A stretch of DNA of 64,000 nt, from NCBI GenBank assembly GCA_008632985.1, contig QPGO01000002.1, positions 558,001 to 622,000 of the forward strand. The letters are read 5' to 3'. Within the stretch, counting starts at the first letter, position 1. Every line of letters starts with the position of its first letter. The stretch comes from Psammoneis japonica. Its lineage: Eukaryota. Positions 1 to 58,073 of this stretch are shown one piece after another. The position numbers and the translations under genes were made by a program. The notes under the pieces are model-generated. The model was not told the origin of the DNA, ran no database searches, and saw nothing but the letters and a program-made list of their open reading frames with translations.

Positions 1-295
1 TCTTTCAGCTCTTGAATCTCCACCACACTTTTGCACATGCGAGGAAAGGCGCTTCTGGCAATAACAGCAGCACCGGAAGCACCAAAAAACCAAATGAAAA
101 AGGATGTCCGGGAGGCTTCCAAAGCCTCGGAAACGATTGGGGCAGCGGTGGTTCCATCCGGAATTGCTTCAAGCCGCGACTTTGTGAAAGCAATTCGTGG
201 GACTCCATTGTCACTCGGACAAAAGGAGTGAACCATGCAGGTCACGATCAGCACAACAAGAAACGTGAGAAGGCGCCTCATGGTGAACGGGACGG
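1..295 (+). repeat. Dispersed repeat X, left part (host of element B)
   Basis: Near-identical to 23861-24154. Confidence 0.9.
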
Positions 296-396
296 ACAGC
301 GCACTGCACAGCTGAACAAATTACCCCGCAGTCGCTTGCTAGAGAGTGAAGTTATAGAAAATCATTGTGACATCGTGCCACTGTTTCTAAGATTGT

Positions 397-621
397 TGTG
401 AAGATTGTCAAATCATCAAGACAGTCATTGTGACCCGCCGCTACAAAGACTTACGTCTTCAGTGCAAACGTCACTCGGGAAACTAGGAGAGCAGACGAAG
501 AGCGTCTCCTCTCCTCACAATTTTCTCTTTAGCAGCTGTAACACTGGCACCTAGAATCGCCCCATGTCCATTGTGATGTCAACATGCTCTGTCTGTTGTC
601 CATTCTCTGGATGTCACAACA
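397..621 (+). repeat. 5' LTR of element A
   Basis: Aligns without gaps to 6480-6704; TGTGAAG...ACAACA. Confidence 0.96.
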
Positions 622-637
622 CGCTTCCTCTGCGCTA
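620..637 (+). promoter_or_regulatory. Putative non-canonical primer-binding site complementary to the D-arm of initiator tRNA-Met
   Basis: Reverse complement TAGCGCAGAGGAAGCGTG resembles the eukaryotic tRNAiMet segment TGGCGCAGCGGAAGCGTG; lies at the 5' LTR boundary. Confidence 0.65.
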
Positions 638-649
638 AAGAAGAAAATC

Positions 650-1965
650 ATGTCGGACGTTTCAAGTGCATCATCGTCCTCAACGTCCGATGAGGACATT
701 CCGTTCGCCCTTGCTCCAGCTCAAGCTGTTACGGGAGCAGTTGACTTTCGCAAGAGTGCTGGACGAAAGCTGTTCGAAAATGGCTCGGAAGCATCAAGTG
801 GAGATGCACTCGACTGCACTCCAGGCGAACTCTTTTTCAGTTCCTCAAGAGTGTTGAAACCAGGGCCAGCCTGCTCGGATGGAATGACCCGACGACAGGC
901 ATTCTTGTGATACCTGAAGACCCTGAAGATCCGGACACGACGCACTCAAACTTGCTCACTGACTGTGGTGAGATCAGCATGGAACGCATCAAGAGACACG
1001 AGGAGTCGCACATCAGGAATCCATGCCGTGCAGCTCAAGATGCTGCCATGCTCGGACACTGTCTGACCAACTCAATCTCCAAGGCTGGGAAGGACAAGGC
1101 ATGCATCCACGATGCATCCCACAAGATCGGAGACAAGATCTCTGGATGTTTGCTCCTCAAGGTCATCATTCAAGAGTCGCACCTAGACATGAATGCAACC
1201 ACGAGCACGATCCGCACGAAACTCGCTGAGCTTGACCAATGCTTGCCGACGATCGGTCACGACATCACGAAGTTCAATCAGTGCGTGGCTCTCCTTCTCG
1301 CTGTGCTAAGGTCTCGTGGCGAAACCACAGAGGATCTCCTGACGAATTTGTTCAAAGGACACCTCGCTGCTTCGGATGAGAACTTTGCCAAGTGCATTGG
1401 CAACAAGCAAGAGGAACACGAGGACGGCAAGGACATCATGCCAAATCACCTCATGACGCTTGTGGACAACAAGTGCAAGAATTTGGTTCAGAAGAAGAAG
1501 TGGAGTGCGCCTGGCAAGGAAGAAGAGAAGACACTTGCTCTGGAAGCCAAAGTCGAAGGCATTGAGAAAAGAGCCAAGAAGCACGAATCTGCTGAGAACA
1601 CCAGAAAGGACGACAAGCGTGGGAAAGGAAAGGATGGTGACAAGCGAAACATGCCCAAATGGATGAAGGACAACTTGCGCCCAACCAAGGATGTGATCTC
1701 CAAGCCTGGGCACTGGAACGGTGTAAAACACTGCCACTGCCACAAGGACGTCGGAGGGAAATGCCCTGGAAAGTGGCGCAAGCACACTCCGGAGAATTGT
1801 TCACATGATCCGGATAAGAACAAGAAGAGAGCGGCCAATGGCAAGAGCGGAAACGAACGGGAGAAGAAGTTCTGCCGCAAACAAGACAGCAAACGACGTC
1901 TCAAGCTTACGAAGGCATACGAGGCAGTGGTCGACAAGGAGCCATCGGACGACGAATCCGAATGA
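650..1965 (+). pseudogene. gag-like ORF of element A, frameshifted near the T-run at ~833
   Basis: ATG at 650 (MSDVSS...FALAPAQA) continues in the frame of ORF 907-1965; C-terminal Cys/His cluster and basic tail; positioned between the LTR and pol. Confidence 0.8.
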
Positions 1966-2028
1966 CTCCTAGAGCACGGCCACAGTTGCAACTGCTGTGA
2001 TGATGGATGTGCAATTGGCGACCTTACA

Positions 2029-5000
2029 ATGTTGTGCTGCGCTTTTGTTAAAGCAACGGCTGCATTCGCATGGCAGGTGACAGCCTGCAATTGCACAAAC
2101 ATCATTTTAGCACTCATCATCGCAGATCGCACCATGGCCTGCGCTCACTCCTCTCCATCCGCCGCGGTCCCAATCATCTGCCTCATGCTCTGCTACAACG
2201 ACAACCCAGGACACTCCCCGCACTACGCACCCAAGAAGAAAAGATGGTGCAAGCTGCGGAAGGGTTGCCGCTGCTTGACCAGCAAGATGCGCCAGGTCAG
2301 AGAACAAGTGGCACAATTCATTAAAGCGATCGACACCAACACCGACTCGTCCAGAAGAGGGAGAATTCGAAGACTCCACCAATCTATGGACAAACTCAAG
2401 AGACCCAGGCGAACACGACACTGTGCCGCAGCACTGGCTGTGGTGGTGGTCGCAATGCAGGCTCAAAACAAGAGCATCATGGAGCACACGGTGACCTTCG
2501 ACACTGACTCAGGACCAGTCGGGGTTGACAATCGGGCCACAGGTTGCATGTCCGATTGCGCGGAAGACTTTGTTGGTGAATTGCGAGACTGCAACAGAAC
2601 CACAAAAGGTTTTGGCGGTTCGAAAACCACCGGGGTGAAGATCGGCACCCTGCCATGGAGATGGAACGACGACGAGGGTAGGACGCATGAGTTCAAGATG
2701 CCCAATTCGTTCCACGCACCAAGTGGGAAGGTCAGGTCACTGAACCCTCAACACTGGGCTAAGACCCAAAGGGACAGCAAACCCAAGGAAGGCATGGGCA
2801 GCAAGACTGACTCAAGGCAGGTGACCCTCTGTTGGAACCAGAAGAAACACCGGCTGACAATGCCGCTGAGTGAAACGACCAACGTGGCTGCATTTCATCT
2901 GGCACCCGGATGCCAAAAGCATGGGGCATTCTGTGCGGAGGTGGACATCGACCCAGCAGAAGAAGTCGAGGATCCTGCACCAGCCAATGAGGCGGCAGTC
3001 GTGAGCGACGATGAGGATCAAGATGATGATGCTGAGGTTGAATGCAATGCTGACGCGCCGCGTGATGAATGGCAACCAATGAACCAAGACCAGTCGCAAG
3101 ACTCAGGGTCGGCACCTGGGGAAATTGACGGGTCAACGGCAGCAGATTTCAACTTAGACGGACCACCGTTGGATGGCAAGCAAGAGGGAGACACGGGCAC
3201 CATGCCAAGTTCCACCTCAGAGGGAGCAGCCGTCAAGCCACCAGCAGTGGTGGAAGATGAAGAGGATTGCCAAGGCTCTGCCGAGGCATCACTGCTCCTA
3301 CGATGCCATCAACAATTCGGCCACATGAGTTTTACAAAACTGCAATGGATGGCAAGATTGGGCACACTGCCAAAGAAGCTGGCAAAATGCAATGCACCCG
3401 TCTGCTCTGCGTGCTTGTGTGCCAAGGCCACTGAGCGCAAGTGGCGAGACAAGACACGACGCAAACAGCAACCGACGGAAAAACCCACACACCCAGGCCA
3501 AGTCGTCTCCGTAGACCAACTTGCATCTCCTGCACCGGGGTTGATTGCTCAAATGACCGGATGGCCAACCACCAAATGGCGCAAGTGTGCTGCGGTGTAC
3601 GTTGATCAATGCTCCAAAATGGGGTGCGTGCACCTGCAAAAGACGGCATCGGCAGCGGAGACGTCAGAAGGGAAACAAGCTTTCGAGCAATGCGCCAAGA
3701 CATGTGGCGTTACAGTCGAAGCCCACCATGCAGACAATGGTGTCTTCAAGGCTGACGACTGGGCATTTGCATGTCGATCACAAGGACAACGGCTCACCTT
3801 CGCAGCGGCAGGCGCTCACCACCAGAACGGCTTGGCCGAGCGTCGCACACGCGAGCTCCAAGAACTCGCCAGGAGCATGTTAACACACGCTCAAAGCCGG
3901 TGGAAGAAAGCAATCACAGCGAATCTGTGGCCTCATGCAATGAGGATGGCCAACGACGCGATTAACAACGCACCGAGTTTCCAAAACAAGGACAGGTTGT
4001 CCCCCATGCAAATGTTCTCCAAGACCCGAGTCTCTGCCAACCCAAAACACTGGAAACCCTTCGGATGCCCAGTGTACGTTCTTGACAGCGCCTTGCAATC
4101 CAACCTGCCACACCACAAATGGAAGCAACGATCAAGGGTCGGAGTCTGTCCAGGCCAAAGCCCAACACATGGAAAGAATGTGGCGCTCGTGCTGGATCGA
4201 GCGACTGCTCTAGTTGGCCCACAATTCCATGTCAAGTTTGATCCCTCCTTCCACACGGCATGGCAAGACAAGCTGGACTCGCAATGGCAAATCAAAGCCG
4301 GCTTCACAGCTCAGAGGGAGGCAACGAAAGCCAACACTGGTGGAGCAGCCAAAACGGCGTCCACACCAGCTCCAACCACGAAGAAGCGGAAAGCAAATTC
4401 AGAGGGAGCTGGGCGAGGCAAGAAACGACAAAAACGAGTTCAATGGGCTGACCTAAATCTGGGACCGCAACAGAGCGGAAACACTGCAGCAGCCACTGGC
4501 CAAGTGGCGTCGAGGCAAGACAGTCCACACGCACAACCTCAGGAAGACGAGGGTGGACCTGCGCCAGCGACTGAATCTCTAGAAGCAGCTCCAGGAGAGC
4601 GCGAGTCTGACGAGACACGAAACGGCACCAATGCACCAAAAGTGACTCGCTCAGGGCGAAAGAGCCAACCGGTCAGCAGACTGACAGAAGCTGTGACGGC
4701 CGAAATCAGTTCCGAAACAAGAAACGATGTCGAGGGTGAGACATTGTGTTTGGCAGCAATGCACCCCCAAGACTCACAAGAACTTAGAAAGACAAGAATC
4801 CCCTCCTTGCCTGTAAAGAATCAGCAGATCCAGACACCATGCACATGCACCAGGCTGTGAAGGAACCGGATCGCGTGCAGTTCCTGAAAGCCATGCAAAA
4901 GGAGGTAACGGATCAAATGGAAAATGGCAATTTCTCCATTGTTCCACGATCACAGGTGAAAAGAGACAGCAAGGTGCTGCCAGCGGTGTGGCAGATGAAG

Positions 5001-6440
5001 CGCAAGCGCGACATTAAGACTCGCAAGGTCAAGAAGTGGAAGGCTCGCTTGAATGTCGACGGTTCAAAAATGAGGAAAGGAAAGGATTGTGAAGAGACGC
5101 ACGCACCGGCAGCATCACGAAACTCAATTCAAATGTCACTTGCCCTGACAGCAATGAACGGGTGGCACTCCAAGCAATTGGACTACATTTTAGCCTTCCC
5201 TCAAGCGCCGGCAGACAAGGAGCTCTGCATGGAAACACCAGCGGGCTTCGAGTTAGTCGACGGCAACACCAAGGATTATGTCCTGAAGCTCCATCAAAAT
5301 GCATGCGGTCAAAAACAGGCTGGCAGAGTTTGGAACAAATGTCTGGTCAACAAGCTCATCAACAAGCTTGGTTTCGAGCAGTCCAAGGTTGATGAGTGCG
5401 TGTTCTATCGTGGGAAAACCATTTGCCTTCTGTGTGCAGACGACTCGCTGATTGCCGGTCCTGATGAGAGAGAAATTAATCAGATCATCAAGGAACTCAA
5501 GGAGGCAAAACTCGACATTACTGTGGAAGGGGACATGCAGGATTTTCTCGGCATCAACATCGTGAGGAAGAACGATGGCACGGTCCACTTGGCGCAACCA
5601 CACTCAATCGATCAGATGCTCAAGGACTTACGACTGGATTCACCAAGTGCCGCACCCAAGGACACTCCGGCGGCATCCTCCAAGATGCCATTAAGGCATT
5701 CCGATTCAGAGCCGTTTGATGATTCCTTCAACTGCCGATCGGTTGTTGGCAAGCTGAATTGCTTGGAAAAATGTGCTCGAAGCGACACAGCGTGCATCAC
5801 CCACCAATGTGCACGGTTCACTGCAGCTCCCAAGGTTGAGCATGCCAAAGCCATGTGGTGGCTTGGCAGATGTTTGTACAAGACCAGAGACAAGGGTGCA
5901 GTCCTGAAACCTGCAAAGGGAAAGGACTTAGAGGTTTACGTGGATGCAGATTTTAGCGGGAATTGGGACCCACGAGAGGCAAGCCAAGACCGAGATGCAG
6001 CACGTTCTCGACACGGTCATGTCATTTCTTGCGCGGGCTGTCCCATTCTTTGGAAATCTCAATTGCAAACCGAGACAGCCTTGAGCAGCACAGAATCTGA
6101 ATGCACAGGCTTGTCGTGTGCTCTACGAGAAGCCACACCCTTGATGGAAATGCTGAATGAACTCAAGCGACACGGCTTCCCTGTCAAGATGTCCACGCCC
6201 AAGATCCATTGCAAAGTGTTTGAAGACAACAGCGGGACGCTAGAGATGGCGCGCGTGCACAAGTGCAGACCACGAACCAAGCACTTGAATGTCAAGTTGC
6301 ACCACTTTCGCGACTGTGTCACTCGAAAAGAAATTTCGACACACGACATCGACACCAAGGACCAACTGGCGGATTGTCTCACTGAGCCGGTTACGGCTGA
6401 GATCCCAGAGACCTTACGTCCTCTGGTGATGGGTTGGTGA
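2029..6440 (+). pseudogene. pol of element A (protease, integrase, RT, RNase H); frameshift at ~4800-4840
   Basis: PR VGVDNRATG; IN HQQFGH..CSAC, VSVDQL, HADNG, NGLAERR, FGCPVYV; RT KARLNVDG, QLDYILAFPQA, CADD (from YxDD); RH YVDADFSG, EDNSG, DQLAD. Confidence 0.93.
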
Positions 6441-6479
6441 GTTTAGACTTTAACTTGCAAGAGACACAATGAGAGGGAG

Positions 6480-6704
6480 TGTGAAGATTGTCAAATCATC
6501 AAGACAGTCATTGTGACCCGCCGTTGCAAAGACTTGCGTCATCAGTGCAAACGTCACTCGGGAAACTGGGAGAGCAGACGAAGAGCGTCTCCTCTCCTCA
6601 CAATTTTCTCTTTAGCAGCTGCAACACTAGCACCTAGAATCGCCCCATGTCCATTGTGACATCAACGTGCTCTGTCTGTTGTCTGTTCTCTGGATGTTAC
6701 AACA
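6480..6704 (+). repeat. 3' LTR of element A
   Basis: Follows the PPT; aligns to 397-621. Confidence 0.96.
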
Positions 6705-7079
6705 GATTGTGAGTGGATCTCGGATGGAGTCGTCTTCCCGTTCCGAGTCGCCAAACACACAGTTCCAAACACTGTTTCCGATAAAACCACATGGCAAATT
6801 CTTCAGTCCCCTCAAGTCGTTGAAGCAGACACTGAATCGGCTTGATCCAATTTACACTCCGACAGTGTTTAGCCACAACCAAGTGACAAGGAAACCCTGA
6901 CAACCTGCTGAAACCCAAATTGGGAAAGGGTGCCAGTCTAAAACCATGCCCTTCCAAGAAGCGCATGGAAGGAATGCGAGCCAACATGCCCGCCAGTGCA
7001 AGCTAACATGCTTGCCAGATGCAAGGAGAAACAGAAAAAGAATCAGTCGAGGAAGCGACCATTCATTCTTCATTCATCC

Positions 7080-10000
7080 TCAATCATCACACACATCGTG
7101 TGGCATCATGCCAACAAGGCCATCTCGCTTGATGCCACCGCACATGATCTTAGTCACAAGATCAGCCGGATTGCATTCCGATCTGGCATGTCCTGTGAGG
7201 GACTCACCCACAGCTGCCGACTCCCCAATGGCATGGCAGCATGTGGAGTTAGACTTCTTCTTCAAAGTCGACTCTGGGCTTTGGGTGTTGTGGACAACTG
7301 ACATGTTGTCCCCACAAATGTGTGATGGTCCGCTGAGCAGGACTCCCATCATCCTGAGTTCACACCTTGGGCCTCGCAAAGCTTCCATGCCCTGCTTCAC
7401 AGCCACAAACTCAGCACCAAAGACTGAAGTCTCGATGGCACTCTGGCGCTTGGAGAACCAGGCAATTGATGCCATGTTCAAATGGATGAAATGACCAGTG
7501 CGAGAGCGTCTCGTCACTTTGTCATTCGCATGATCTGAGTCTACAAATGGACGTAGATCAATGTCCTTGCCCAGAGCTTCTGGTGCATTTGGCGGAATTG
7601 CCTCCTTGGTGTCCCTGCAGAATGCCTGCCAATCACATTCCTTAAAGTCAGACATGTCAACATCCGGGTGCGTTGGATCGAACGCTAACGTGGCATCATG
7701 TCTGTTCTTAAGGCATCCATGCACATGCAGGACTGCGCCGAGATGACCTTCTCCAGGCATGGCAAGGAATGAGGCAAGCTCGGACACCTCTGCTGTGAGG
7801 TCGACTCGTCCAAGTTCCACTGTCCAGCACAGGACTCCTGCCTGCGACTGGCAAAATTGAGCCCGCTCTGCATCAAGCTTTGGCGCAATGTCGAGCTCCG
7901 GTCGACAGTCGCGTGGAAACGGAGCCGTTGCCTTGCATGGTGACGTCCATCCGGGAGCAGACTCATCTAGACACCCCTCGACATTTCCAACGGCCTGTTG
8001 GATGCACTTGCTAGAGCTCATGCTCCACGCGTGGATACCGTTCGGCATTTGCACTTCACGGATCTTCGCCCCGAGGTGCATCTCAGGGTCACCGATGGAT
8101 CCGGGTTTCATCTTGAAGTGTCGGTCCAATTCCTTGAGCGCCAACGTGGCGTCGTGGTGCACCACAAGCACATCGTCGACATGCAACAGTGCACAGGCAT
8201 GGCAACGGAACCCATCATCTGGTCGAACTTGTGCCTTCATCCACACATCGGGATCAGCTGGACATGGTTCCCAACCAAGATGACGCATGCACGATGCCAA
8301 GTGGTTCCTGAAGGATGCACCTGCACTCTTCAATTCGTACAATGCGCGCTTGACTGTGGCACGCTTCCCAGCATTGGGTCCAAACTCAGGTCCCAGAGTT
8401 GTGGTGATCTTCTCGCTGTCAGGTGCGGTGATGTGGGCATTCTCAATGTCTGCAGCCTTAACCTCTGAGTCATTTGGAGCCGCTAGAGCGAAGGCAATCC
8501 TTGCACTTTCACGGGAGACGACGCTTGCGCACGTCAGGGTCGCTGGAGGTTCAGTGGCATGTCCCCCTGCGACATGACGAGCCTTCCGCTTGAAGTCTTG
8601 TAGTTTGACATCAAAGACCAAGTGGCAGCGGATGTGCTGGCAACCCACAAGCTCCTCGTCATTGTCGACAATCTCAAAGGCTTTCGCAACGACTTCGATC
8701 TCCTTGTCTACGGCGTCCTGCCACAAGCGGTCGCCATTGGCCTTGTCGATCTCGACTGCCTCTTCACAGGTCTTGGGAATGCGCATCCCGTGCTCATGAG
8801 TGCGCTTGTGATGTCGCTTGTTCACAGCGGCTGTGATTTGCTGACGTTTCTTGAAGGTAAAGGGAACCCACCATGCAAATGCGGGTTCATCCTCTGTGGA
8901 TCTAGCCCTGGCATACTCTGCCATTTCTGCTGGGTTAGATTCCTTCAAGTCGGACAGTCGTTCCCAAGATGTGGATCCGTCTTTCCATTGCACGCAAAGA
9001 TGCCAGCCTTTGGCAGTCTTGCGCATGGATCGACGTCCTCGACTGTCTTGGATGAAGGCGCCCTCCTTCTTGACAGCATGCCCGTCAGTCTTGTGATCAA
9101 CAATTGCACCCGGCAACAAGTGCTGGTTGCCTTCATTGTCACACTGTGCGAACACATTCTCAGCGATGACATTCGCCGCGAATTCCGCTTCCTGTCCATC
9201 AGGAAACTCGACCTCACACACACGAGTGTCAAGCATTGGGTTTGGGTTGGCCCGTCCGGCAGGTGTGCCGCCCGGATTGAGCTTGCGTCGCTTCACCACC
9301 CCAGTCTGTTCCATGTCCCCGTGAGGCAGCAGTGCTTCTGCGTTGACATGTTGATCGTAGGCTTCGTCTGGCATGTCATCCTCATCGGAGGCACTGGACG
9401 GAACATCCTGTTCCTCTTCATCCTCGTACGGTTCGAAGGTGGGAGCAATTGCATCAGGGTCGTCAAAGTCCCCGACGGTCATGCCAGGGCCTAGCTTGAC
9501 CTCCATCAACCTGTCAAACTTTTCACGCAACGCCGTGTGCGTCTTGTGTCCCTGCTCCTCGGGAGTTGGTGCCCTGTGAGATGAGCGATGGACTGCCTGT
9601 CCATTCTCCTTGAGCATCTTGGCCGTCATAACTGGGCCCACATCCCTGCTCGGACCTGGACATCGCCCCAGGACTTCCTTGTCCTCGGGAAATGAGACTG
9701 CCGTGTCTCGAAACATGACCCAGTCGCACCAGCCCAGTTCGCACATGTGCGAGATGTCAGCCGTCTGACCAGACACAACAGTTTCCGGGACTTCGCCGTC
9801 AAGCTCATAGATGCTTCGAGCGGTGCCAGACCTGACAAGGCCTTCCAGTTCCAGGCAATCATCCCACAGGCATTTTGGGGCCTGTGACTTGACCATCTTG
9901 CGCCCAACACCTCGCTTGAGTTCACGAATTGCGCCCTCTGCGGTGTCAGACCAAGGGGTGTGTGGTTCAGTTTGTCTTGCATGGCAATCAGCCTCCCTGG

Positions 10001-11169
10001 CTTTCTTGCCAAACTGCCCCATTGTCTCTTCTCTCACCCCGTCCACCAGCATGGTGTGGGGCACGCCTTCTTGCGCGAAGAGCAACGATGACGCCTCGTG
10101 CGCTAGACGTTTTGACTTCAATGGACAAGCACGTGCCCATCCATTGGACATTGCGAACACTTGCGTGCACACATTCCCTTGCCCAGACTTGACAGAGGAG
10201 AACATGGTGTCGGAGCACATCTCCTTTGAGACACGCCTGTGTCGCAGTTGTCGATCATTGGTGCGGAAACGTCGCGACAGCGCAGGATGTAGAACCGTCC
10301 TGGCTCCACGCTGTGTCGTAACCTTGAGAGTGTTCTGAGCATCCTTGAGGCTGATGGACCAATTCTCGGCCAAACGTTCAGCGTCAACCTTGAAGCCGCG
10401 CTTCGTCGTCTTGAGCGAAGACAGTTTCATGGATGCCAGTGGCAAACGGTCATCGCATGCATTGGAAACATCACGTGACGGCTGATTCCCCAGAGAGTCT
10501 GAGGTCTCTTGAGCTGCAGTGCGCATCGTCCCCGGTCTCATGCACTCTGCCAAGAGCATCGGTCATGGCATCTTCCCTGGCGTGGAAATCAGAGGAGGCG
10601 GGGTCCCATTCCGGGGACTCACACGTGAGTTCGCACACGCTCCCGTCTTGGGCTGCATCCTCGCATTGAGACAAAGTCGGGACACTGGAGGGGAAGCAGC
10701 TCGAGACTCCCTCCAGGTCCAAAGGCACAGCCAATGAAGTGCCATTTGCGTCCTTGGCGACAATGGCATGTTCCTTGTCGTTGGGCTTTGTCAGCAGAAA
10801 CTTCGGTTTTAATGAAAGTTCCACGTCATTCAGCCACAACTGCATTGGACACAGCAAGTTGTGCTCAAGGTGTGGCACATGGACTGCTTGGTGGACAACC
10901 AAGACGTGTGGGTGGCCCGTCTGAGGATCAGCACAAGCAACAGCTCCACTGACGGTGCGCAGACGCTTGCTGGCACCTGATGTCGGGTCGCACCCTTCCA
11001 TGTCTACTGGCCTGTCATGGTCAAGTAAAATTAAAGCGTGCTTGCCTGGCACGCTCATGTCTGCATGACCATCGATGTCCGTGCGAGACTCTTCGTTCAA
11101 TGGTCCCTTAACCTTTGTCTGGGTCAAGCGTAAAGTCTGCAACGGACTGAGCCACATGACAGCCACCAT
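7080..11169 (-). pseudogene. pol of element B (PR, IN, RT, RH); frameshift near 10550
   Basis: PR DIDGHAD, HNLLCPMQL; IN CSDTMFS, TEPHTPWS..AEGAIRELK; RT FKRKARHVAGGH, ADIENAH, ALYELKSAGA, HVDD; RH FVDSDHA, CGDNMSV, NPADLVTK. Confidence 0.94.
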
Positions 11170-11175
11170 TGGCGG

Positions 11176-12593
11176 TCACTCCTTGTGACATCCAGCCTTG
11201 GGGACATGCTTGCGAGCAGCCTTGCGAATCAACGCCTTGTTGTTGCGGTTTCGATCCTGCTTGGCAGCCGGAGGCTTCATTGGCTCTTCAGTTTCAGATT
11301 CACTGCCACCTTCATTGGATGAATCGTCCATCTGAGCTGAAATGGCAGTGACCGTCTTGGTCAGAGCCTTGATCTGTTTGGCGTTACCGGCCGCCGTGGC
11401 CTTGCCGGTTTTCGTGTCACCACGTGTGTCGCGCAGCGACTTGAGCTTCTTCCCAGCCTGGGGAAACAGCTTGCTGCACTCTTTGGGAGGGCGGCACTTG
11501 TCCTCCACATCATCGGCATGAATGACAGCCTTTTCGTGTCATTGTCCGGCTTGGACTGCTTGATGAAGTCCTTGAGCAGAATGACGCAAGCATCAAAGTC
11601 GTTGCGCAACGTTGCGCTAGACACAATCTGCATCTTGACTGAGTCAAGTGACGAGTCCTTGACACTTGCAAGGAGATGGCAGACCTTGGATCGTGCGTCG
11701 ATCCCGGCATGACCACACTGGGTTGAGCCATCCAGAATCGCGTGTTGTTCAACATGAACTCGCACGCAGCGCTCGAAGTTCCAATTGCGCTTTTCCCCGT
11801 GGCAGGACAAACTGGCAAGGCACTTTTCAGCGGCGTTTGCCATGTCATCTACATTGTTGTAGGCCGTCCTGCCATCCTGACTCCTCTGGGCCGACTTGAC
11901 ATGGGCCCAACTCGTGTGTTCTTGCGTGATGCCTGCAACAATTTCCCGCACTTTGATGTCATCGGCCGTGAACATTTCGGCAGGTTGAGGGTCATTCCCA
12001 GCAGCAAAATGCGGGGCCCTCGTGATCATCTCCTTGATGGGATTGTCACAGTTGGTGGCTGGATCATCGGCCTCGGGAGCCACTTCCTGGTCATCACGGA
12101 TGACGTGCGCTGGCGGCATTTTCGTCTCGCCTCGGCATGCCCGCAGATGCTCCTGAATCGACTCGATCGTCTTCGGCCAGTCCTTCTCGATGATCATTGG
12201 CAGCGTTTTGGGCGGTGCGCAGGTCTCCTCTGTGGCACGGAAGTGTCGGTGGCCTTGCACTCGTGCAAGGTTGATGTCGACAGCTCGCAACGTCCGCGAC
12301 ATGCGCTCACAGTGACGAGCCGCATGCGCGGCGAGCTTGAGGTTCGTCTCGGCTCGCAACGGGACTGACGTCCCCAGGTTGGGTTGGGCGTTCCCTCCTG
12401 CTGGCGGATTCCCTGCCGCAGCCCCTCCTGGGCGACGAATGACCTTGCACAAGGTCTCGACCTCGTGGTCGTCGAGATGACGCAGTTCATCGACTGAGTC
12501 GATTCCCTGCTCATCGGTCAAAGCCGCGGCTGCTTGCGCGGCAAACCCCAGTCGGGTGCAGGCAGCACGCATCGCTGCAGCGACTGCCGCCAT
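11176..12593 (-). pseudogene. gag-like ORF of element B, frameshift near 11520
   Basis: ORFs 11361-12593 and 11176-11508; motifs YxGEKRNWNFE-like (CHGEKRNWNFERC) and LRNDFD, recalled as typical of diatom copia gag; upstream of pol. Confidence 0.8.
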
Positions 12594-13280
12594 GGTTGAT
12601 GGTTACGAACGGTGTAATTTGATGTTCTCGCAAACTTTTGTGTGGTTGTGTACGGAAAGTGAGTGAGGTGCGCGAACTTCGTATCGCTTTTCCACCGTTG
12701 GATAAAAGTAATCGTTATGACTACGATCAACGTGTCTACAGATAGCTGTTTATATTTAATCCACGTGGATTAATATCTGTATGGGAATTCAGATACAACG
12801 GCTACTGTTACAATCTACGTGATCGAATAATGCATGTGCCGATCATCGGCAACGTGCTCGTTCCCTGGTCTACATTGACCAATAGTGAGGTTAAATATAT
12901 ATAATTTATCAATTATATCGCGTCTACATATTCAACTTGCATATGTTTATATGCTCACTCGACGATTTCAAATCGCCACGCAGTTGCCTCCGAGATAACT
13001 TCGGTATGGAAATGGCGTCCCAGATCCAATTTTGCGCTCTGTGTCCGCGTATTTACGCTCATAAAACACATCAGGACAGTCGATACTTTTGTTATCCATA
13101 AGTATTACGGCCGAACTAGCCCTGGGAGTTACATACTCGTCAAGCACGAACGTCGTCTCACGTTCGTCGATGTTTTCATGTCATCTCTGACAAGTTGGAA
13201 CGAATGGTCGTATTGCGAATCGTTCGCAAGCGTAGCAATCATTACCACTGTCGTTACATACGGCGATGGCTCTGATAAAG

Positions 13281-13456
13281 TGAATAAATTACCCCGTAGT
13301 CGCTTGCTAGAGAGTAAAGTTATAGAAAATCGTTGTAACATCGTGCTGCTATTTCTAAGATTGTGAGTAGATCTCGGATGGAGTCTTCCCGTTCCGAATC
13401 GCCAAATATACAGTTCTAAACACTATTTCCGATAAAACCACATGGTAAATTCTTCA
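13281..13456 (-). repeat. 5' LTR of element B (TpA-rich, largely unmutated)
   Basis: Aligns to the split 3' LTR; followed on the minus strand by TATCAGAGCC (tRNAiMet-type PBS core). Confidence 0.95.
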
Positions 13457-13509
13457 CAGCACTACCGGTGTAATGCGCACAGATGCTGTACGGTGAATGA
13501 GACCGAGCG

Positions 13510-15020
13510 AGAGTGGTTTCGGACAAAACAGCACAAGAATCCAACTTGAAACTAAACAACAAAAGAAAATGCCCATGACTTGTTTTGTTTCACCATCTTC
13601 CTGTCATGACACTCATTGTGTCTTTTTCTCAAACCACCTGATGGTTTGTCACGTTCTTGTGTTTTTGTTTTCTTCTTGTGGTGGTGTGTTTGGTGTGCTG
13701 GTGTGGGGGGGAGAGACTCGACAGAGTGCTGCGCCAACATTTTTCGCAACACAAAGTGCACTTGCAGGACCCTCAACAAGCACGCCAAACATCCACAATT
13801 TGTGCTGCAATCTTTTTTGCCACATGCAACACAACAATCAGTTTGCTCCCAAAAAAGCAGCTGACTCTTGACAGTGTTTTTTCTCTCCTCGCACCTCTGT
13901 GCTTCTCTCCTGCCAAGCCAAGCCCCACAGAGGTGTGCTCTGGACAAGAGTCAAAGACCTGCTGTGTGACCTCCATGTGACAACATTTCCAGCATGACTT
14001 GTGTTGACAACAGAATGGATGATGCTGGCCAGAGGCAGTTTCTTTCAGCTTGGGCATCTTCGGGGCGGGTGCTTGTTTCTTCTTTCTTGCTTCCTTNNNN
14101 NNNNNNNNNNNNNNNNNNNNNNNNNNNNNNNNNNNNNNNNNNNNNNNNNNNNNNNNNNNNNNNNNNNNNNNNNNNNNNNNNNNNNNNNNNNNNNNNNNNN
14201 NNNNNNNNNNNNNNNNNNNNNNNNNNNNNNNNNNNNNNNNNNNNNNNNNNNNNNNNNNNNNNNNNNNNNNNNNNNNNNNNNNNNNNNNNNNNNNNNNNNN
14301 NNNNNNNNNNNNNNNNNNNNNNNNNNNNNNNNNNNNNNNNNNNNNNNNNNNNNNNNNNNNNNNNNNNNNNNNNNNNNNNNNNNNNNNNNNNNNNNNNNNN
14401 NNNNNNNNNNNNNNNNNNNNNNNNNNNNNNNNNNNNNNNNNNNNNNNNNNNNNNNNNNNNNNNNNNNNNNNNNNNNNNNNNNNNNNNNNNNNNNNNNNNN
14501 NNNNNNNNNNNNNNNNNNNNNNNNNNNNNNNNNNNNNNNNNNNNNNNNNNNNNNNNNNNNNNNNNNNNNNNNNNNNNNNNNNNNNNNNNNNNNNNNNNNN
14601 NNNNNNNNNNNNNNNNNNNNNNNNNNNNNNNNNNNNNNNNNNNNNNNNNNNNNNNNNNNNNNNNNNNNNNNNNNNNNNNNNNNNNNNNNNNNNNNNNNNN
14701 NNNNNNNNNNNNNNNNNNNNNNNNNNNNNNNNNNNNNNNNNNNNNNNNNNNNNNNNNNNNNNNNNNNTGGACATCAGGGTTGGCCACTGTCAATCAAAAG
14801 TCTAAATCTCAAATGACAGAGGCACAAGATGCATGCTCCAAAAACATCCATCACTCTTCAAACTGTGGTGCAGTGCTCACCCAACAATGAGCAACTTGCC
14901 TCTTTGTTCTTCTCTTGGCTCCTCATTCTCTGAGCCACCTTCAAACCATGTTTTCTCTGCACATGCTGGTGTGCTCAAACACATGTTGTTTTCCAAGTTG
15001 CCGCCAGAAGCTGTGGCCCC
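13510..15020 (+). repeat. Dispersed repeat X, right part, spanning an N gap
   Basis: ~13516-14096 is similar to ~24254-24879; ~14940-15020 is similar to ~25711-25777. Confidence 0.75.
14097..14767. other. Assembly gap
   Basis: Run of N. Confidence 1.
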
Positions 15021-16099
15021 AAACCATCCAACACTCCATCCAATGCTGCCAAAAGCAACAAAAGCACAAGTGCTGTCTCTTGATGCAACATTTGTTGAGT
15101 GCACAATTGTGACCAGAGCTTCTGTTGTGTGTGTGTGTGTGCACCATCCACAATTTTTTATTCCTTGTGAGGTCTGTTTTTGATGTGTCAAAGACTGAGC
15201 TCAATGTGCAATCTCAACCTCAAATGAACAGTTGCACCCAAACCCAATTGATGCATCATGCACAGGAGCAGGGTTTGAGCAGCTGGGTGGTGACAGAAAA
15301 TTCCAGTGTTGTGAAAGTTGTGAGACCATTCTTCACGAGCTTGAGCCCCCACATGAGATGCGCTGATTGTGAGGTGGACAGCTGGATCATGACTTGCTTG
15401 CATGAAACTCCTGTGGACAATGGCGGACTCTCACAAGGTGCTTCTGCATGATCAGCTGCCCCCATGGGCCAGCCTGCAGATGCAGGATGTGCTGTGCAAT
15501 CCAGGGTTGCCCGCTGCACAGTGGCGCAGGATTGTCATTGTCCAAGCCAGCCAGCACTGTGCAATTGTTTGGGCAAACAAAGCTTGACAAACAACCATCC
15601 AATCATTCTCATTAGCTGGAGCTGCTGATGGCATGACTGCCAACAATCTGGGCTTGTGCCCTGTTGCTTGTGGTGCTGCTGATGCCGGTTTTGTCATGCG
15701 CCAAAGAGTGCAGACCTTTGAAACATGCACCAGTCTGCACAGCTGCCACTGCGTGCTGGGTTGACCCAAAGTCTGATGAACCTCACCTGCTGCCAGCCCA
15801 CAAGGCCATGCACTTTGAGGCCCAGATGAAAAATTTGCTCTCATGCCTTGGCCAACTGTGCCCAAATGTGCTGTGGCTGTTCATGGCACACCTTGCCAGT
15901 TTGACAAGAGCAACACTCCTCACTCACAGCTGCATTCTTCCCTGGCTCAAAAGTCACAACCTTCCTGCAACCAGAGGGAGTTTTGCTGGCAATTGAATCT
16001 GACAAACCTGCTCAGGTGGGACCTGGACAATCTGCCATGACTGGAGCTGACATTGCTGCTAAAGTGGGAGCCCTTGTTGATGCATCTTTTGGACAAAAG

Positions 16100-16430
16100 G
16101 CGGGAGATGTCCAAAGTGAAGGTGGCGTGGAATGAGGAGGATGGTGGCACCCCAGAACAGATCGAGGAAGGCAAGAACCCAAATGTGGTCAGCTGTCAAA
16201 ACATCAAATGTCATTTGGGTGGAAGAAATCATGGCCACAAACTTCAAAATGAAACAAGCCAAACAAGTCTTGTTGCTTGACTGTGACACACAGTCAGGAG
16301 CTTTCATCATGGGCAATGGCAAGAATTTTGCAGCCAGTGTGGAGAAATGGTGGAACAGATGCAGGTGCATGCCGGCATTGTGGCAGCTTTGGCACAAAAC
16401 CTGGATGCTTGTGAAGTGCGGTTGATGAGA
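16100..16430 (+). pseudogene. Highly decayed copia RT fragment
   Basis: KVKVAW..PEQIEEGK..VSCQNIKCHL resembles the element B RT region (VAKAF..VGCQHIRCHL). Confidence 0.45.
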
Positions 16431-17479
16431 TTGCAACACTGTTTGTCCGATGGATTTGCCATGGGCCATGGCAAGAGCAGGGCGCAGCTTTTAGTTGGCG
16501 GCAAGATGGTCAAAGAAGTTGCATGAGGCGCATGATGCATCCAGTTTCCAAGAGCATCTCTTGACAATTGCCTGGACAGGATGCACAATGCAGAAGCTGA
16601 CATGCCATAGTCTAGAACCAGAACAGATGCACATTAGAACCAGAGTGGATGTGCCAAGCTCAACCGTGCCTGAACTTCGCCTCTAATCCTGTCAGCATGC
16701 AAATTGTCTCCTCCCCTTCAGCACCGACATGGAGGTTGAATGCCTTCTCTTCTTTCCCCATCTGCTCATGGGGTTTGCTGCTAAACCGCCTGTGCATTGA
16801 TTGGGCTTCTCATGGGCTTTATAAACTGACTGGTTGGAGAGTGGACGTGTGCCTCCAACGAAATTAAAGTGAGTGTGACTGCATTTCCAGACAGCGACGG
16901 GGAATGAGAGGAGCTCGGTCAAATCGGACGAAAAGCAACAGGTCAACGCATCCGCAGTGTGTCTGGGATGACCAGTCCCATCCAAATGAGGCATGTGCCG
17001 TGCCTTGACCAATTCATCCCACAACCACTGCAGATTTTCTCGATGCCATTGACGCGTTTCTGTTTTGCTGACAAATTTCGAAGCTCTCCACCGCCGTCCG
17101 TTTGGGAGAATGACAAAGCACAGTCATTCATTAAAACATTTTGGCACACACGATGGCATCTGATCATGGCGATGTTCCCAACATGCGGAACCGCAAAAAT
17201 CCAGCGCGTGCATCTCCAGCAAATCTCGTTCTGTGCATGTGAGCCATCCAGGCTGCTCCGACACACTTCTTGATTTCCTGCCTCGGGCATTGTGCATCTC
17301 GTGATTTCCGATGACAAACAACACCTTTTCATGCTGATCAGTTTGCCAGTGCAAGAAAGCACGCAGCGAATCGGCAAAGACAAGCCCAACATCGCCGAGC
17401 AATGCCAAGACGGAAGCATGCAGAACAAATGAAATTCTCTCGTGCACTTGCTGATTCCAACCCGTCAAACTGATTCCAA

Positions 17480-17800
17480 CCCCAGACAGAACACTTCACA
17501 GTTGTAACACTTTGTAAGTTGCTCCAGTCGGAAATGTAAAATGTGAATCACCAAGTCACTTGAGGATGGGAATGCCTGCTGATTTGAGTTCCAGCTCCTC
17601 ATTGGCATCTCATCACACTCTCTCGCAACTGAAGACCACAGCTTTCCTGCCTCTTCCAAGGATCTCTGCTCAACGTATTTGGCAAGATGCACGAAGCTGA
17701 TGTTCCAAGCAATGGAGACAGATGCTGGGCGAGGTGCAATCAAAGTCACATCTCCTCCAAGATTGGCAAACGTGCAGCAACATTCAATTCCTTCGGCATC
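17480..17800 (-). pseudogene. Decayed gene resembling the NLGGDA-motif family (recalled as DUF6940-like)
   Basis: FANLGGDVTLIAP...HLAKYV...LW..VA...LHFRLEQLTKCY; family assignment from memory only. Confidence 0.4.
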
Positions 17801-17899
17801 GCATTCTTCGTTCAGTTTCCTTGACATTTTTGTCTAAAGTGCTCTCAAGGTGATGGTTCCCGACCGTGTCGTCACCGCTGCTCATTGTGTCCAGCTGCC

Positions 17900-19500
17900 A
17901 TCACTCCCGCAGAGCCTGCCCGATTGTTGCTTCCAGCATCCCAATCAATTTCCATCCGAAATCTCTGTGTTGTCGTCACTGCCACTGGCAGATCCAAGTG
18001 GATGTTCAGAAAAGGTTTCGGGATCAGCCCCAGCTGCATTCTCTCTAGACAGAGAGACGGGTCCAGGGTGTGCTCAAGTGGAAAATGAATCAACACTTCC
18101 TCTACACTCGAAAAGCATTCCTTTCCACTTTGCCTGTTGCAGAACGCTTGAAAACTCACTCGCAAGAGTTGAGAGAAGCAACAAAAGTCTCGCCCACGTC
18201 CCGGATGAAATGGGAAGCCCTTTTGCCAATCCCCCATGTTTGGCAATGGCTGGCACAGACATGCACCCTTCAAACAAGTCAGACTTGCTAATTCCTCCTC
18301 TCTCCACTGTCTCCCCAAACACATCCATTTGGAGTGGCCCACGCTCCCATTCCAAGGGATCTGTCCGGCCCAAATTGTGAGCGTCACCGCGTCAGCAAGC
18401 GGGTGAGCAACCAACGGCACAAGAACAAAACCGAGGAGCCAAGGTGTGCTTTGACCTGCAACATCACATCCAGCTCATTTTGCCATCAATGTTGTCATCG
18501 AAACTAAAAGGAATGATGGCCGACCTCAATGATGAGAGTGCGCAACGGAACATTGTCTGAGCCCTGTCTTCACTTCATGCGGCAAAACACAGACGGCCGC
18601 AGTGTCACACAGAACAGCCCACCCCATTTTAACAGTACACCGCCGCACATGAAAAGCAAGAAAATGGGATTTGACGCCCAAACGATTCGGCCCTTTCTGC
18701 AGCGGATGGTCCACACCCCGAATGCAACAGAAAGATGAACTGCAATGGCCGAAAGGGCAAGGCCAAGGCCACGCATTGCCCCGTTCAGGCAATTGTGATC
18801 CACCTGGACCTTTGGGCAGAGGCGGTTGCAGCAAACACATGGGGCCAAACTGCGCCACGTTCCCATCTCGAATGAAGTCTGCTCAACAGCATCAAACGTG
18901 GAACTCCCGTTTTCAGTGCCCAATGAAGTCGAGCAACTGGCAATGTGCGTGGTCAAATCAAGAGACCCTGTCGTCGGGTCGACGACAGTGGAACCCGCAG
19001 CACCCACAAAGATTTGCATTGACGGCATGCTCGCAATGGGAGTCGTCGCCGTCAAAGTGAGCGACGGGGGTCTGTTGCAGCACAAGCAGCTGATCCCATG
19101 GAGATTGTAGAATCACACAGAAAGATCCCCAGATCTGGAGACTTGAATGTTCTTTCGACTGGAAGCTGATCTCCCCGTGATCGGGATGGTTCTGGAGCTC
19201 TTGTGCTCGAAACCAATGCATCTAGCGCACGAGTTCCTGGCATCCTGGCTGGACAAAGAGCACGGAACTCATTCCACGAGCCACTTGCAGGATGCAGGCC
19301 ATCTGAGAAAAATCCAGACATGGTCATTTCCAGCGATCCCCTGGCGACAGTGAAGCAAGAGCATCAGGTGGTTCATGCCAAGAGAGTGATTCCGGACCGT
19401 AGCGGTAAAGTGCAGTGTTGCCCGCCATGCCGCGATGATGGTGTGATGCGGCTGGCCGATGCAAACAACGATCAAGATGGAAGATAGATCGATCACCGCG
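17900..19500 (-). pseudogene. Class C GPCR (GABA-B-receptor-like, 7tm_3) pseudogene
   Basis: WTIRCRKGRIVWASNPIFLLFMCGGVLL (cf. xxxVxASQPxFL), DPLEWER and GIAGNDHVWIF, scattered over several frames. Confidence 0.65.
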
Positions 19501-28035: not shown

Positions 28036-28059
28036 CTCTGGTGGCAAGTTTGACGACAT

Positions 28060-58030: not shown

Positions 58031-58073
58031 CTTGGGTGGTTGTCTTAGCCTCTGACGATCCAATCAGTCAACG

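Follow-up and report, generated by a model that had tools for sequence, protein, structure and literature searches.

Why do the two long terminal repeats (LTRs) of a single retrotransposon differ mainly at TA dinucleotides, with one repeat holding TA where the other holds TG or CA, and at what stage, in which direction and on which molecule did these changes arise? The retrotransposon, here called element A, lies in contig QPGO01000002.1 of Psammoneis japonica, within a stretch of 64 kb that was analysed as a whole and is referred to as the window. An earlier note on this DNA took the differences for mutations of TA in double-stranded chromosomal DNA, made after integration, on both strands and independently in each copy. 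The reading preferred here, which we consider probable, is a chromosomal, post-integration process that turns TA into TG or CA on both strands and independently in each copy, that is specific to TpA, and that is confined to transposon blocks with the host genes spared.

Element A is a dead Ty1/copia LTR retrotransposon in a host identified as a raphid pennate diatom, and all three features tested for membership of this group were found. Its parts, together with a paralogue of its insertion site, are as follows (o/e is the observed over expected ratio).

391..396, + strand, target-site duplication GATTGT, left copy
397..621, + strand, 5' LTR of element A (225 nt, TG...CA; 6 TpA remaining, o/e 0.38)
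907..1965, + strand, gag-like ORF (Tyr 0.3%, ending in TGA; aligns with the N-terminal part of the homologous polyprotein)
2029..4860, + strand, protease/integrase ORF (in the gag frame; gag_pre-integrs match)
4839..6440, + strand, RT/RNase H ORF (in another frame; RVT_2, 2.6e-34)
6471..6479, + strand, polypurine tract GAGAGGGAG, directly adjoining the 3' LTR
6480..6704, + strand, 3' LTR of element A (225 nt; 4 TpA remaining, o/e 0.26; differing from the 5' LTR at 13 bases)
6705..6710, + strand, target-site duplication GATTGT, right copy
13281..13456, + strand, uninterrupted paralogue of the insertion site (a single GATTGT), within an island of normal TA content

Both LTRs have the ends TGTGAAG...ACAACA, the integrase is upstream of RVT_2, the ORFs are colinear with polyproteins of 1,300-1,500 aa and the RT shares 58-67% identity with polyproteins from diatoms and marine metagenomes. 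In its LTRs, target-site duplication, polypurine tract and gag-PR-IN-RT order element A is like the CoDi-type Ty1/copia elements of diatoms, but unlike those described it has been inactivated by the loss of TpA together with one in-frame stop and one frameshift; an account of diatom copia elements, in the part of it that was available, mentions CpG methylation and not TpA hypermutation (PMC2806351). The integrase core was unrecognised by the search.

The GATTGT duplication (6 nt, or 5 nt and one ambiguous base), the polypurine tract and the empty paralogous site together indicate that both LTRs derive from one insertion, and therefore that their differences arose in the chromosome. With the differences private to one LTR that are described below, this upholds the post-integration origin that had been proposed. 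The paralogue has TA at 11 of 11 sites where the flanks of element A have TG (5) or CA (6). These flanks lie outside the element, which tells against an alternative in which mutation was mainly pre-integration, with A-to-I edited RNA or reverse transcription errors being copied into new insertions and any chromosomal process being minor.

By repeat search and gapless alignment the two LTRs are identical at 212 of 225 positions, with the 13 differing bases at LTR positions 45, 47, 57, 62, 89, 143, 150, 181-182, 188, 205-206 and 219, and 12 of the 13 are transitions. TA is present solely in the 5' LTR at GCTACA, CTTACG, ACTAGG and TGTAAC (window 443, 453, 485 and 539) and solely in the 3' LTR at ACTAGC and GTTACA (window 6629 and 6698). 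Two sites are reciprocal, with TG facing CA (GATGTC/GACATC at 577-578 / 6660-6661 and TCCATT/TCTGTT at 601-602 / 6684-6685), and exactly three other differences exist: C/T at 441, T/A at 458, which is the sole transversion, and A/G at 584 (CA vs CG). Every hexamer in the earlier list, six of TA against TG or CA and two reciprocals beside three other differences, is present in the two repeats. Scored by type, the events divide into 6 of TG-type and 4 of CA-type, and the claim that both strands are affected is borne out. It is also possible for assembler mixing of copies in this multi-copy family to inflate the LTR differences of element A.

Such a pattern is not readily produced by chance. When 13 random substitutions, 12 of them transitions, were placed on this LTR pair in 20,000 trials, at least six single sites involving TA were found in 3.0% of trials (mean 2.6), and at least six such sites jointly with at least two TG/CA doubles in 0 of 20,000. 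For comparison, among 16 related metagenome loci with terminal direct repeats, 10 of which had pairs that differed, TA-associated events made up 25 of 258 (22 of them singles and 3 doubles), whereas in element A they make up 8 of 11. A hand calculation of independent loss, given two shared, four plus two private and two reciprocal sites, is fitted by about 12 ancestral TA of which the two LTRs lost fractions of 0.5 and 0.67; about two reciprocals are then expected, where two are observed. The caveat raised earlier, that the reciprocal sites could come from CG, can be dropped, since a further hand calculation predicts about 0.02 CG-derived reciprocals; each LTR retains 8-9 CG and there is one CG single.

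Taken alone, the LTR differences are unpolarised and can equally be read as CA or TG changing to TA, with TA the derived state and C-to-T mutation at CpA or CpG, ordinary or RIP-like, as the cause. CA and TG are the most frequent dinucleotides in these LTRs (41-43 per LTR) and so are frequent targets of random transitions, and diatoms are described, in the available part of PMC9998398, as possessing DNMT4 enzymes related to fungal RID. Reversing the polarity would mean that each reciprocal site needs a double mutation of CG, for which the expectation is the same 0.02. Polarity at the LTR sites of element A rests on its coding region, on composition and on two small LTR elements elsewhere in the window.

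27590..28034, + strand, small LTR element a, ~445 bp long (LTRs of 107 nt, target-site duplication ACTCT/ACTCT)
58075..58520, - strand, small LTR element b (target-site duplication ATGTT/ACGTT)

The LTRs of element a differ by three TG/CA doubles, one TA/TG and two CG/CA, and those of element b by four TG/CA doubles and two CG singles. At one CA/TG double of element b, element a has TA in both of its LTRs; over the TG/CA columns of the small elements another copy has TA at 2 of 7 and CG at 0 of 7, which argues both against reversed polarity and against CG as the source of the reciprocals. Private and reciprocal TA losses are thus present in 3 of 3 LTR pairs (A, a and b), all three within one 64-kb window, in agreement with the claim of independent mutation in each copy; losses of this kind are not inheritable from one RNA, which is a further point against a pre-integration origin. 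A search of the window by sensitive BLAST with the LTRs of both types returned the known copies only, and a search of viral_contigs found no relative. A different repeat pair, 1-295 / 23861-24154, is 98.3% alike and has one TpA remaining in each copy. Copies of the flanking repeat family overlap one another in pairs only.

The direction of change, which the earlier note had assumed, can be seen in the coding regions. In a comparison of the RT of element A with 120 homologues, changes were found at 17 of the 18 conserved Tyr columns (14 to Cys, 3 to His), the catalytic box being CADD, and 33 of the 48 changed conserved positions are single steps of TA>TG (21) or TA>CA (12). Within the protease/integrase ORF the corresponding counts are 7 of 8 Tyr columns, and 21 of 29 changed conserved positions explained by TA>TG or TA>CA. 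A second copia element shows the same trend.

7080..12593, - strand, copia element B (on the strand opposite to that of A and of another lineage; TpA o/e 0.14)

Here 11 of 13 conserved Tyr columns are changed (7 Cys, 4 His), with TA>TG/CA steps at 18 of 44 changed conserved positions at a conservation threshold of 60%; its RVT_2 match is weak (2e-10). Across the RT and integrase ORFs of A and across B there are no CA>TA or TG>TA steps at conserved positions, nor any reverse residue change of Cys>Tyr or His>Tyr. In controls with normal TpA (L001, L024, L028 and L074) TA>TG/CA steps account for 2 of 167 changes with 0-1 of 18 Tyr columns changed, and the host ClpB has no Tyr>Cys/His among 9-11 conserved Tyr columns. 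The near-total replacement of Tyr by Cys or His with no reverse steps therefore sets the polarity as TA to TG or CA. The chemistry is almost purely transitional, as A and B together have 39 Tyr columns with a change, of which 37 are single transitions, one is a double transition and one is Y>F.

It is apparent from 1-kb and 250-bp profiles that the loss of TpA follows the transposon blocks of the window.

1..12600, TpA-depleted block in which elements A and B lie with their flanks (per-kb o/e 0.08-0.24; sharp edge at ~12.5-12.75 kb)
13500..34500, TpA-depleted block (o/e 0.02-0.27; CpG 0.09-0.15 in the oldest parts; two N runs inside)
34500..52250, region of host genes (SET, NIF phosphatase, ClpB, aspartyl protease) with a TpA o/e of 0.4-0.7 and CpG of ~1
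52250..54600, insert depleted in both TpA and CpG, flanked by two duplicated host genes that are spared (edges sharp in the 250-bp profile)
57250..64000, TpA-depleted block (o/e 0.02-0.15), running to the window end

TpA o/e is 0.02-0.27 in the transposon blocks against 0.4-0.7 in host genes, a depletion of 4- to 30-fold, and GC is 0.53-0.56 where TpA is depleted against 0.46. This is depletion and not the enrichment of TpA that reversed polarity would bring, and together with the lack of reverse steps it makes C-to-T production of TA scarcely credible as an explanation. The process stays within the transposon blocks, whose edges span less than 250 bp, and a 2-kb tandem duplicate of a host gene is spared: the duplicated aspartyl-protease genes (49829-51851 / 54903-56992) are 93.5% alike over a 1,698-bp core, keep a TpA o/e of ~0.6 and differ with an ordinary spectrum (59 of 142 differences are transversions). 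Fragments of 7tm_3 and DUF6940 genes sit inside a depleted block; a homologue search and an Atlas search for them gave no matches.

Losses of TpA and CpG occupy the same blocks, with CpG o/e falling to 0.01-0.15 in the older ones, and this sharing would suit an origin without any dedicated enzyme, in which a lesion or polymerase bias is left unrepaired in silent chromatin, for example through error-prone patch repair at the T:G mismatches that deamination of methyl-CpG leaves (WA mutagenesis of the polymerase-eta kind). Mutations of A that favour the sense strand by about 2:1, similar to the excess described below, are also known both for polymerase-eta mutagenesis in antibody genes and for transcription-coupled adenine damage in tumours. 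Yet the timing and the spectrum do not fit. In the young elements A and B CpG is still 0.76-0.80 (0.76 in A) whilst TpA is down to 0.14-0.18 (0.18 in A), so the loss of TpA is faster than CpG decay in the same DNA, and CG to TG or CA is ruled out as the source of the TG and CA excess. Among the 16 dinucleotides TA alone drops, to 0.18 and 0.14 against 0.72 +/- 0.10 in 34 unmutated relatives, with clear rises limited to TG and CA, and the deficit of 43 TpA per kb is close to the gain of 40 TG plus CA per kb. AA is unchanged (1.08 and 1.00 vs 0.99 +/- 0.05) and A:T transversions are nearly absent (1 of the 39 Tyr changes), neither of which agrees with WA mutagenesis, and the edges of the blocks are as sharp as those of elements. 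We regard a route without an enzyme as unlikely. The exclusive TpA specificity, the sharp edges and the lack of dipyrimidine changes are left unexplained by UV TA-photoproducts as well as by biased gene conversion, and both were set aside.

Relative to the unmutated relatives the trinucleotides stand at 0.04 for TAT, 0.02 for ATA, 0.17 for TAC, 0.18 for TAA, 0.30 for TAG and 0.32 for TTA, with TAT the most sensitive of the TAN contexts and TAG the least. ADAR prefers a 3' G, and that TAG is the least depleted context is the opposite of what editing of RNA by such an enzyme would give. What speaks for a pre-integration origin is the balance between strands, with A-to-G exceeding T-to-C on the sense strand. 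Tyr>Cys exceeds Tyr>His by 14:3 in the RT of element A, by 26:11 over the whole window and, once metagenome copies bring the set to seven sequences, by 52:28 (p = 0.0097), although this ratio is inflated by the 3' context, TAY being the most sensitive. Likewise, all 7 depleted sequences have a positive difference of TG minus CA o/e on the sense strand, where 34 baseline loci give 0.008 +/- 0.085, and the gain of TG to CA per kb is ~2:1. Both strands are mutated, with a moderate sense-strand excess of 1.4-2:1. Taken together, all single TA steps of the two copia elements divide as 42 TA>TG to 30 TA>CA, the latter making up 23 of 54 for A and 7 of 18 for B. The earlier note had offered a TG:CA ratio near 1:1 as a check for action on double-stranded DNA; the involvement of both strands stands, but the ratio runs from 42:30 to ~2:1 and is not symmetrical.

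As the sense-strand excess is moderate and CA steps are common, RNA editing is excluded as the sole source, and the earlier judgement that RNA editing and reverse transcription error are disfavoured agrees with 30 of 72 TA steps being TA>CA and with the private and reciprocal nature of the LTR losses. A partial contribution of edited RNA or cDNA would nonetheless also produce a sense excess. The interior of element A is more depleted (TpA o/e 0.18) than its LTRs, as a pre-integration origin would have it, and therefore part of its TpA loss may be older than its present insertion. As the main cause, events before integration are distinctly unlikely.

It might also be that the true DNA is still TA, with modified bases at TpA or CpG miscalled or copies mixed by the assembler. 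Nanopore data are known to contain miscalls at methylated motifs, and the family of element A is multi-copy, with 417 contig pieces in read run X1. X1 is the one DNA run listed as containing the element, and no RNA run was listed. This run contains 64% of the sampled 31-mers of element A at word depths of ~55-60, and 101 of the 417 pieces are at least 99% alike, which fits accurate reads, the run being possibly the source data. Other copies in the run differ from the window by transitions at 668 of 827 differing places, with many TG/CA doubles; the 40 of these places that were listed all lie outside the LTRs. Miscalling would neither spare host genes on the same contig nor affect 98% of sites, and independent metagenome assemblies carry the same signature: contig L054 has a TpA o/e of 0.03 with 13 of 17 Tyr columns changed, the signature recurs in contigs L027 and L034 and in the database protein P0201, and TpA o/e is <0.4 in 5 of 80 related metagenome loci. 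An artefact is thus very improbable.

The mechanism that would follow from the preferred chromosomal, post-integration reading is A:T to G:C change almost exclusively at 5'-TA-3', in every transposon block of the window after insertion, with mutation of the + strand giving TG and mutation of the - strand giving CA. The lesion may be an enzymatic deamination of adenine at TpA to hypoxanthine, which would pair with C, in silenced and probably CpG-methylated transposon chromatin, with transcription-linked exposure or repair as the putative cause of the sense-strand excess. That a putative adenine deaminase acting on DNA carries out this step is suggested only tentatively. Of the earlier claim that the target is chromosomal dsDNA, chromosomal DNA is supported, while 'double-stranded' exceeds the data, which would suit a duplex or a transiently single strand. 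A possible, if doubtful, wider reading is that some diatoms have a natural DNA adenine base editor as a genome defence, recruited to silenced transposons, where the adenine of 5'-TA-3' would be deaminated in chromosomal DNA or the paired thymine oxidised. Such a system would mirror fungal RIP but have an independent origin, and would be present in several environmental lineages.

Like RIP of ascomycete fungi, the process hypermutates chromosomal transposon copies by transitions at a specific dinucleotide, affects both strands and each copy separately, works at a site-saturating speed and inflates LTR divergence. RIP itself is premeiotic and depends on a methyltransferase of the RID type. RIP changes C:G to T:A, mostly at CpA, and yields TpA, a decrease in GC and stop codons (described in part in PMC2621366 and PMC7296669). 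Here, unlike in RIP, A:T goes to G:C at TpA, with TpA vanishing, GC rising and TAA and TAG stops being lost; there is neither a TpA excess nor a GC drop, and the duplicated protease genes are not mutated, whereas RIP affects any duplicate from a few hundred bp upwards. Methyl-CpG decay, itself present in the older blocks, is similar in that a self-complementary pyrimidine-purine step gives TG or CA by transition, with reciprocal TG/CA pairs between copies, but cytosine methylation cannot explain a TpA target nor a loss that outpaces that of CpG in young elements. ADAR hyperediting and APOBEC editing, the latter known as G-to-A editing of LTR elements (from the part available of PMC4866542), also target retroelements with a sense-strand excess, and A-to-G with a 5' T/U neighbour is as in ADAR. 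Such editing is pre-integration, on one strand and common to both LTRs, whereas here the LTRs differ, both strands and the flanks are mutated and a 3' G is disfavoured.

In the literature searched, which lay outside subscription journals, no report of TpA-directed hypermutation in diatoms was found, and term searches of the available parts of PMC9998398, 10.1101/2025.10.24.684338 and PMC2806351 did not find TpA hypermutation either. Removal of TpA by A:T-to-G:C change would require a different chemistry from cytosine-based systems, possibly a natural adenine-in-DNA deaminase. To our knowledge, the transposon-directed chromosomal hypermutation in print is essentially C-to-T (fungal RIP and relatives).

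Several consequences are of practical importance. The raw LTR divergence of element A is 13/225 (5.8%), and 3/225 (1.3%) once TA-derived changes are removed, so that, as anticipated, dating by LTR divergence overestimates age, in this organism by about fourfold. Other genomes may be screened for the signature by looking for a TpA close to zero, for TG and CA values of about 2 and for replacement of Tyr by Cys or His. Since TAA and TAG are removed and stops are rarely made, mutated elements keep long open frames with their Tyr, Ile and Leu codons rewritten; dead elements thus look intact and homology searches are weakened. If the base-editor reading is true, elements would die with their reading frames still open. 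Over the whole window, 134 frames run for at least 120 codons without a stop.

The only long direct repeat recovered by a repeat search of positions 1-9000 is that formed by the LTRs (397-621 and 6480-6704) of element A, a Ty1/copia retrotransposon on the forward strand. Its interior carries a gag-like ORF, an ORF matching gag-pre-integrase and an RVT_2 ORF, colinear with copia polyproteins of 1,300-1,500 aa from diatoms and marine metagenomes, with a polypurine tract just before the 3' LTR. GATTGT stands at either end of A, and a paralog of its flanks at 13281-13456 lacks the interruption and has one GATTGT only, thus A is a single insertion and the differences between its LTRs arose in the chromosome, as an earlier note had proposed. 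The LTRs align without gaps over 225 bases with 13 differences, all but one of them transitions (12), and every site listed in that note was recovered exactly: four TA only in the 5' LTR, two only in the 3' LTR, two TG/CA reciprocals and three others. When 13 random substitutions were placed on the pair in 20,000 trials, at least six singles involving TA arose in 3% of trials, and at least six of these together with at least two TG/CA doubles in none of the 20,000. TA-associated events account for 8 of 11 in A's LTRs, compared with 25 of 258 between the terminal repeats of related metagenome loci with normal TpA.

The direction of change, which the earlier note could not distinguish from its reverse (CA or TG to TA), is decided as TA to TG or CA by composition, conserved residues, two extra LTR pairs and the arithmetic of the sites. 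The observed/expected ratio (o/e) of TpA is 0.29 for the whole window; it is 0.4-0.7 in the gene region and 0.02-0.25 in transposon blocks, where CA and TG lie at 1.3-2.2; the interior of A (0.18) is somewhat lower than its LTRs (0.38 and 0.26). Comparison of A's RT with 120 homologues, counting columns with at least 80% Tyr, found 17 of 18 conserved Tyr columns altered, 14 to Cys (TGY) and three to His (CAY), and the catalytic box, Tyr-Thr in the family, reads L-C-A-D-D (CTG TGT GCA GAC GAC). Single TA>TG and TA>CA steps explain 21 and 12 of 48 altered conserved positions in the RT and 10 and 11 of 29 in the IN ORF. In element B, a copia element of a different lineage (7080..12593, reverse strand), 13 conserved Tyr columns include seven now Cys and four now His, and TA steps make up 18 of 44 changes. 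Among the conserved positions examined there was no CA>TA or TG>TA step and no conserved Cys or His that had become Tyr. Four relatives with normal TpA had 0-1 of 18 Tyr columns altered and TA steps in 2 of 167 changes, and the host ClpB control had no Tyr>Cys/His across 9-11 Tyr columns.

Worked by hand, two shared, four plus two private and two reciprocal sites in A's LTRs fit independent loss from about 12 ancestral TpA, with per-LTR losses of 0.5 and 0.67 and about two reciprocals predicted where two are seen. The further LTR pairs come from an inverted repeat (27589-28036 / 58073-58521) in which one 445-bp non-coding element is present twice, each time with a 5-bp TSD of its own; the element looks like a TRIM-like miniature LTR retrotransposon.

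Small LTR elements
27590-28034, forward strand: element a, 107-nt terminal direct repeats (TGCAAC...GCTGC), TSD ACTCT/ACTCT
58075-58520, reverse strand: element b, 107-nt terminal direct repeats (TGCAAC...GCTGC), TSD ATGTT/ACGTT

Within their LTR pairs a and b show three and four TG/CA doubles, besides one TA/TG single and CG singles numbering 2 + 2. The LTRs of b have CA and TG at columns 85-86 of the alignment, where both of a have TA, and columns 32-33 read TA, TG, TG and CA across the four LTRs. The caveat that such reciprocals might derive from CG is settled in favour of TA: the LTRs of A have 8-9 intact CpG sites and one single, from which about 0.02 CpG-derived reciprocals would be predicted (by hand), and in the seven TG/CA columns of the small elements TA survives in two and CG in none.

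Sequencing run X1 contains other copies of A's family, and these depart from the window at 827 places. Transitions account for 668 of the places, and 10 TG/CA doubles cover 20 of the 40 places listed from the 827. TpA o/e is below 0.4 in five of 80 related metagenome loci, being 0.03 in L054 and 0.03-0.39 over L054, L027, L034, L041 and L070. Tyr columns have become Cys or His in 13 of 17 cases in L054, 12 of 15 in L027, 6 of 14 in L034 and 12 of 18 in the database protein P0201. The process, as judged from its sequence signature, extends beyond the Psammoneis japonica genome to environmental copia relatives.

The affected blocks have sharp edges at 250-bp resolution, where the TpA count per 250 bp climbs from 0 to 27 between 12.25 and 13.0 kb, drops from 23 to 1 between 13.25 and 13.75 kb and falls from 20 to 4 at 52.25 kb. 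The paralog of the A site lies in a TA-normal island; of the 11 sites at which A's flanks have TG (five) or CA (six), it retains TA at every one. The host genes, at about 34.5-57 kb, encode a SET-domain protein, a NIF phosphatase, ClpB/Hsp104 and two pepsin-like aspartyl proteases. The C-terminal exon of ClpB shares 69% identity with ClpB of Seminavis robusta, and the remaining named top matches are all diatom, mainly raphid pennates (Nitzschia, Cylindrotheca, Fragilariopsis, Epithemia). These matches place the host among the raphid pennate diatoms, the protein collection searched having no entry for the host itself. The proteases form a tandem duplicate:

49829-51851 / 54903-56992: host pepsin-like aspartyl proteases (TAXi_N + Asp), 2 kb, 93.5% alike, 1,698-bp core

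This duplicate has normal TpA, an ordinary spectrum (59 transversions in 142 differences) and no hypermutation, so duplication by itself is not the trigger. A 2.3-kb block without TpA and CpG parts the two copies. The blocks with the deepest TpA depletion are also without CpG (o/e 0.01-0.15), whereas the younger A and B retain CpG (0.76-0.80) whilst losing TpA, which makes TpA loss the faster of two co-located decays. Within one depleted block are two Tyr-poor frames, 17468-17833 (reverse strand, 2 Tyr) with a DUF6940 match (1.5e-14) and 18573-19112 (reverse strand, 1 Tyr) with the start of a 7tm_3 receptor domain (6e-6, under Pfam's cut-off); neither a search for homologues nor one of the Atlas found a match for them, and a host gene or pseudogene may have been drawn into the process here.

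Against a baseline of 34 unmutated relatives (0.72 +/- 0.10), TA is the only one of the 16 dinucleotides lost in A (0.18) and B (0.14), with clear gains in TG and CA only and AA unchanged. The TpA deficit of 43 per kb is close to the TG + CA gain of 40 per kb, and GC rises from 0.46 to 0.53-0.56. Retention varies with the neighbouring base in a strand-symmetric manner (TAT 0.04 / ATA 0.02; TAC 0.17 / GTA 0.14; TAG 0.30 / CTA 0.21). The 39 altered Tyr columns of A and B comprise 37 single transitions, one double transition (CGC) and one transversion. At IN ORF residue 518 (3580-3582) a conserved Tyr is Arg (CGC), which requires both bases of one TpA to be altered, LTR position 188 of A (584 / 6667) is CA in one copy and CG in the other, and the protease duplicate also shows two TA/CG doubles; both adenines of one TpA may occasionally be mutated, giving a new CpG. 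Each of A's three ORFs ends in TGA, which supplies 239 of its 329 stops over six frames, TAA and TAG being scarce. It is because TAA and TAG have been erased that stop-free frames are plentiful, with 134 of at least 120 codons on both strands of the window, many overlapping, and gene calling from ORFs would be badly misled here.

Both strands are mutated in every data set, as the earlier note had claimed, but the ratio is not 1:1, there being a moderate sense-strand excess (42:30 over the single steps in A and B).

Strand balance, TG-type (A>G on the element's sense strand) versus CA-type (the same on the other strand); Tyr-codon ratios are inflated, no context being more sensitive than TAY
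Tyr>Cys versus Tyr>His, A and B: 26 versus 11
Tyr>Cys versus Tyr>His, plus L054, L027, L034 and P0201: 52 versus 28, p = 0.0097
All visible single steps, A and B: 42 versus 30
Gain per kb over unmutated relatives: 26.8 versus 12.8
Post-integration events in A's LTRs: 6 versus 4

The excess tracks orientation, falling on the element's own sense strand in both A (forward) and B (reverse). RNA editing or RT error as sole cause is excluded by the mutation of both strands in every data set. The excess is compatible with an asymmetry linked to transcription or with a small contribution from before integration, and the chromosomal target may be dsDNA, as the earlier note infers, or a transiently single strand. 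A process acting at WA in the manner of polymerase eta would agree with the strand excess, yet it fails on the unchanged AA and on the near absence of transversions (1 of 39 altered Tyr columns).

In this one window, with three LTR pairs compared, the process is shown to act on chromosomal DNA after integration, separately for every copy and on both strands, to be specific to TpA, to proceed almost purely by transitions and to be confined to transposon blocks. We infer enzymatic base conversion from the exclusive use of transitions and the strictness of the dinucleotide rule; in its simplest version it would turn adenine into hypoxanthine at 5'-TA-3', and the silencing state of transposons might recruit it. 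Alternatively the thymine of TpA may be oxidised, a chemistry known from dinoflagellate and kinetoplastid DNA; as TA is self-complementary, adenine and thymine chemistry are inseparable by sequence alone. The logic is RIP-like, although RIP is defined by its base change, the dinucleotide it produces and its targeting of duplicates, none of which is seen here, and the process is distinct from CpG decay and from ADAR- or APOBEC-type editing. No description of it in diatoms was found in the literature searched, most subscription journals lying outside that scope, and as far as could be found it is an undescribed variant of transposon-directed hypermutation. The observation in the earlier note is confirmed, and its interpretation is supported apart from strand symmetry and the claim of dsDNA as the target.

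The 64-kb window also contains two runs of N:

14097-14767: N run, 671 bases
24880-25710: N run, 831 bases

One diverged repeat has a copy ahead of each run (13584-14047 and 24360-24816, 76% alike), a further short match comes after each (14941-15022 and 25712-25778), and the masked sequences are probably parts of a single repeat family. Tandem repeats of ~70 and ~235 bp at 20439-20975 lie within a frame that weakly matches DUF1918 and has 6 Tyr, in contrast to neighbouring sequence. Positions 1-295 and 23861-24154, 23.8 kb apart, are 98.3% identical with one TpA remaining per copy, which looks like a recent duplication of previously hypermutated DNA. Read depth over 1-240 is ~14x that of single contigs, indicating a high-copy repeat.
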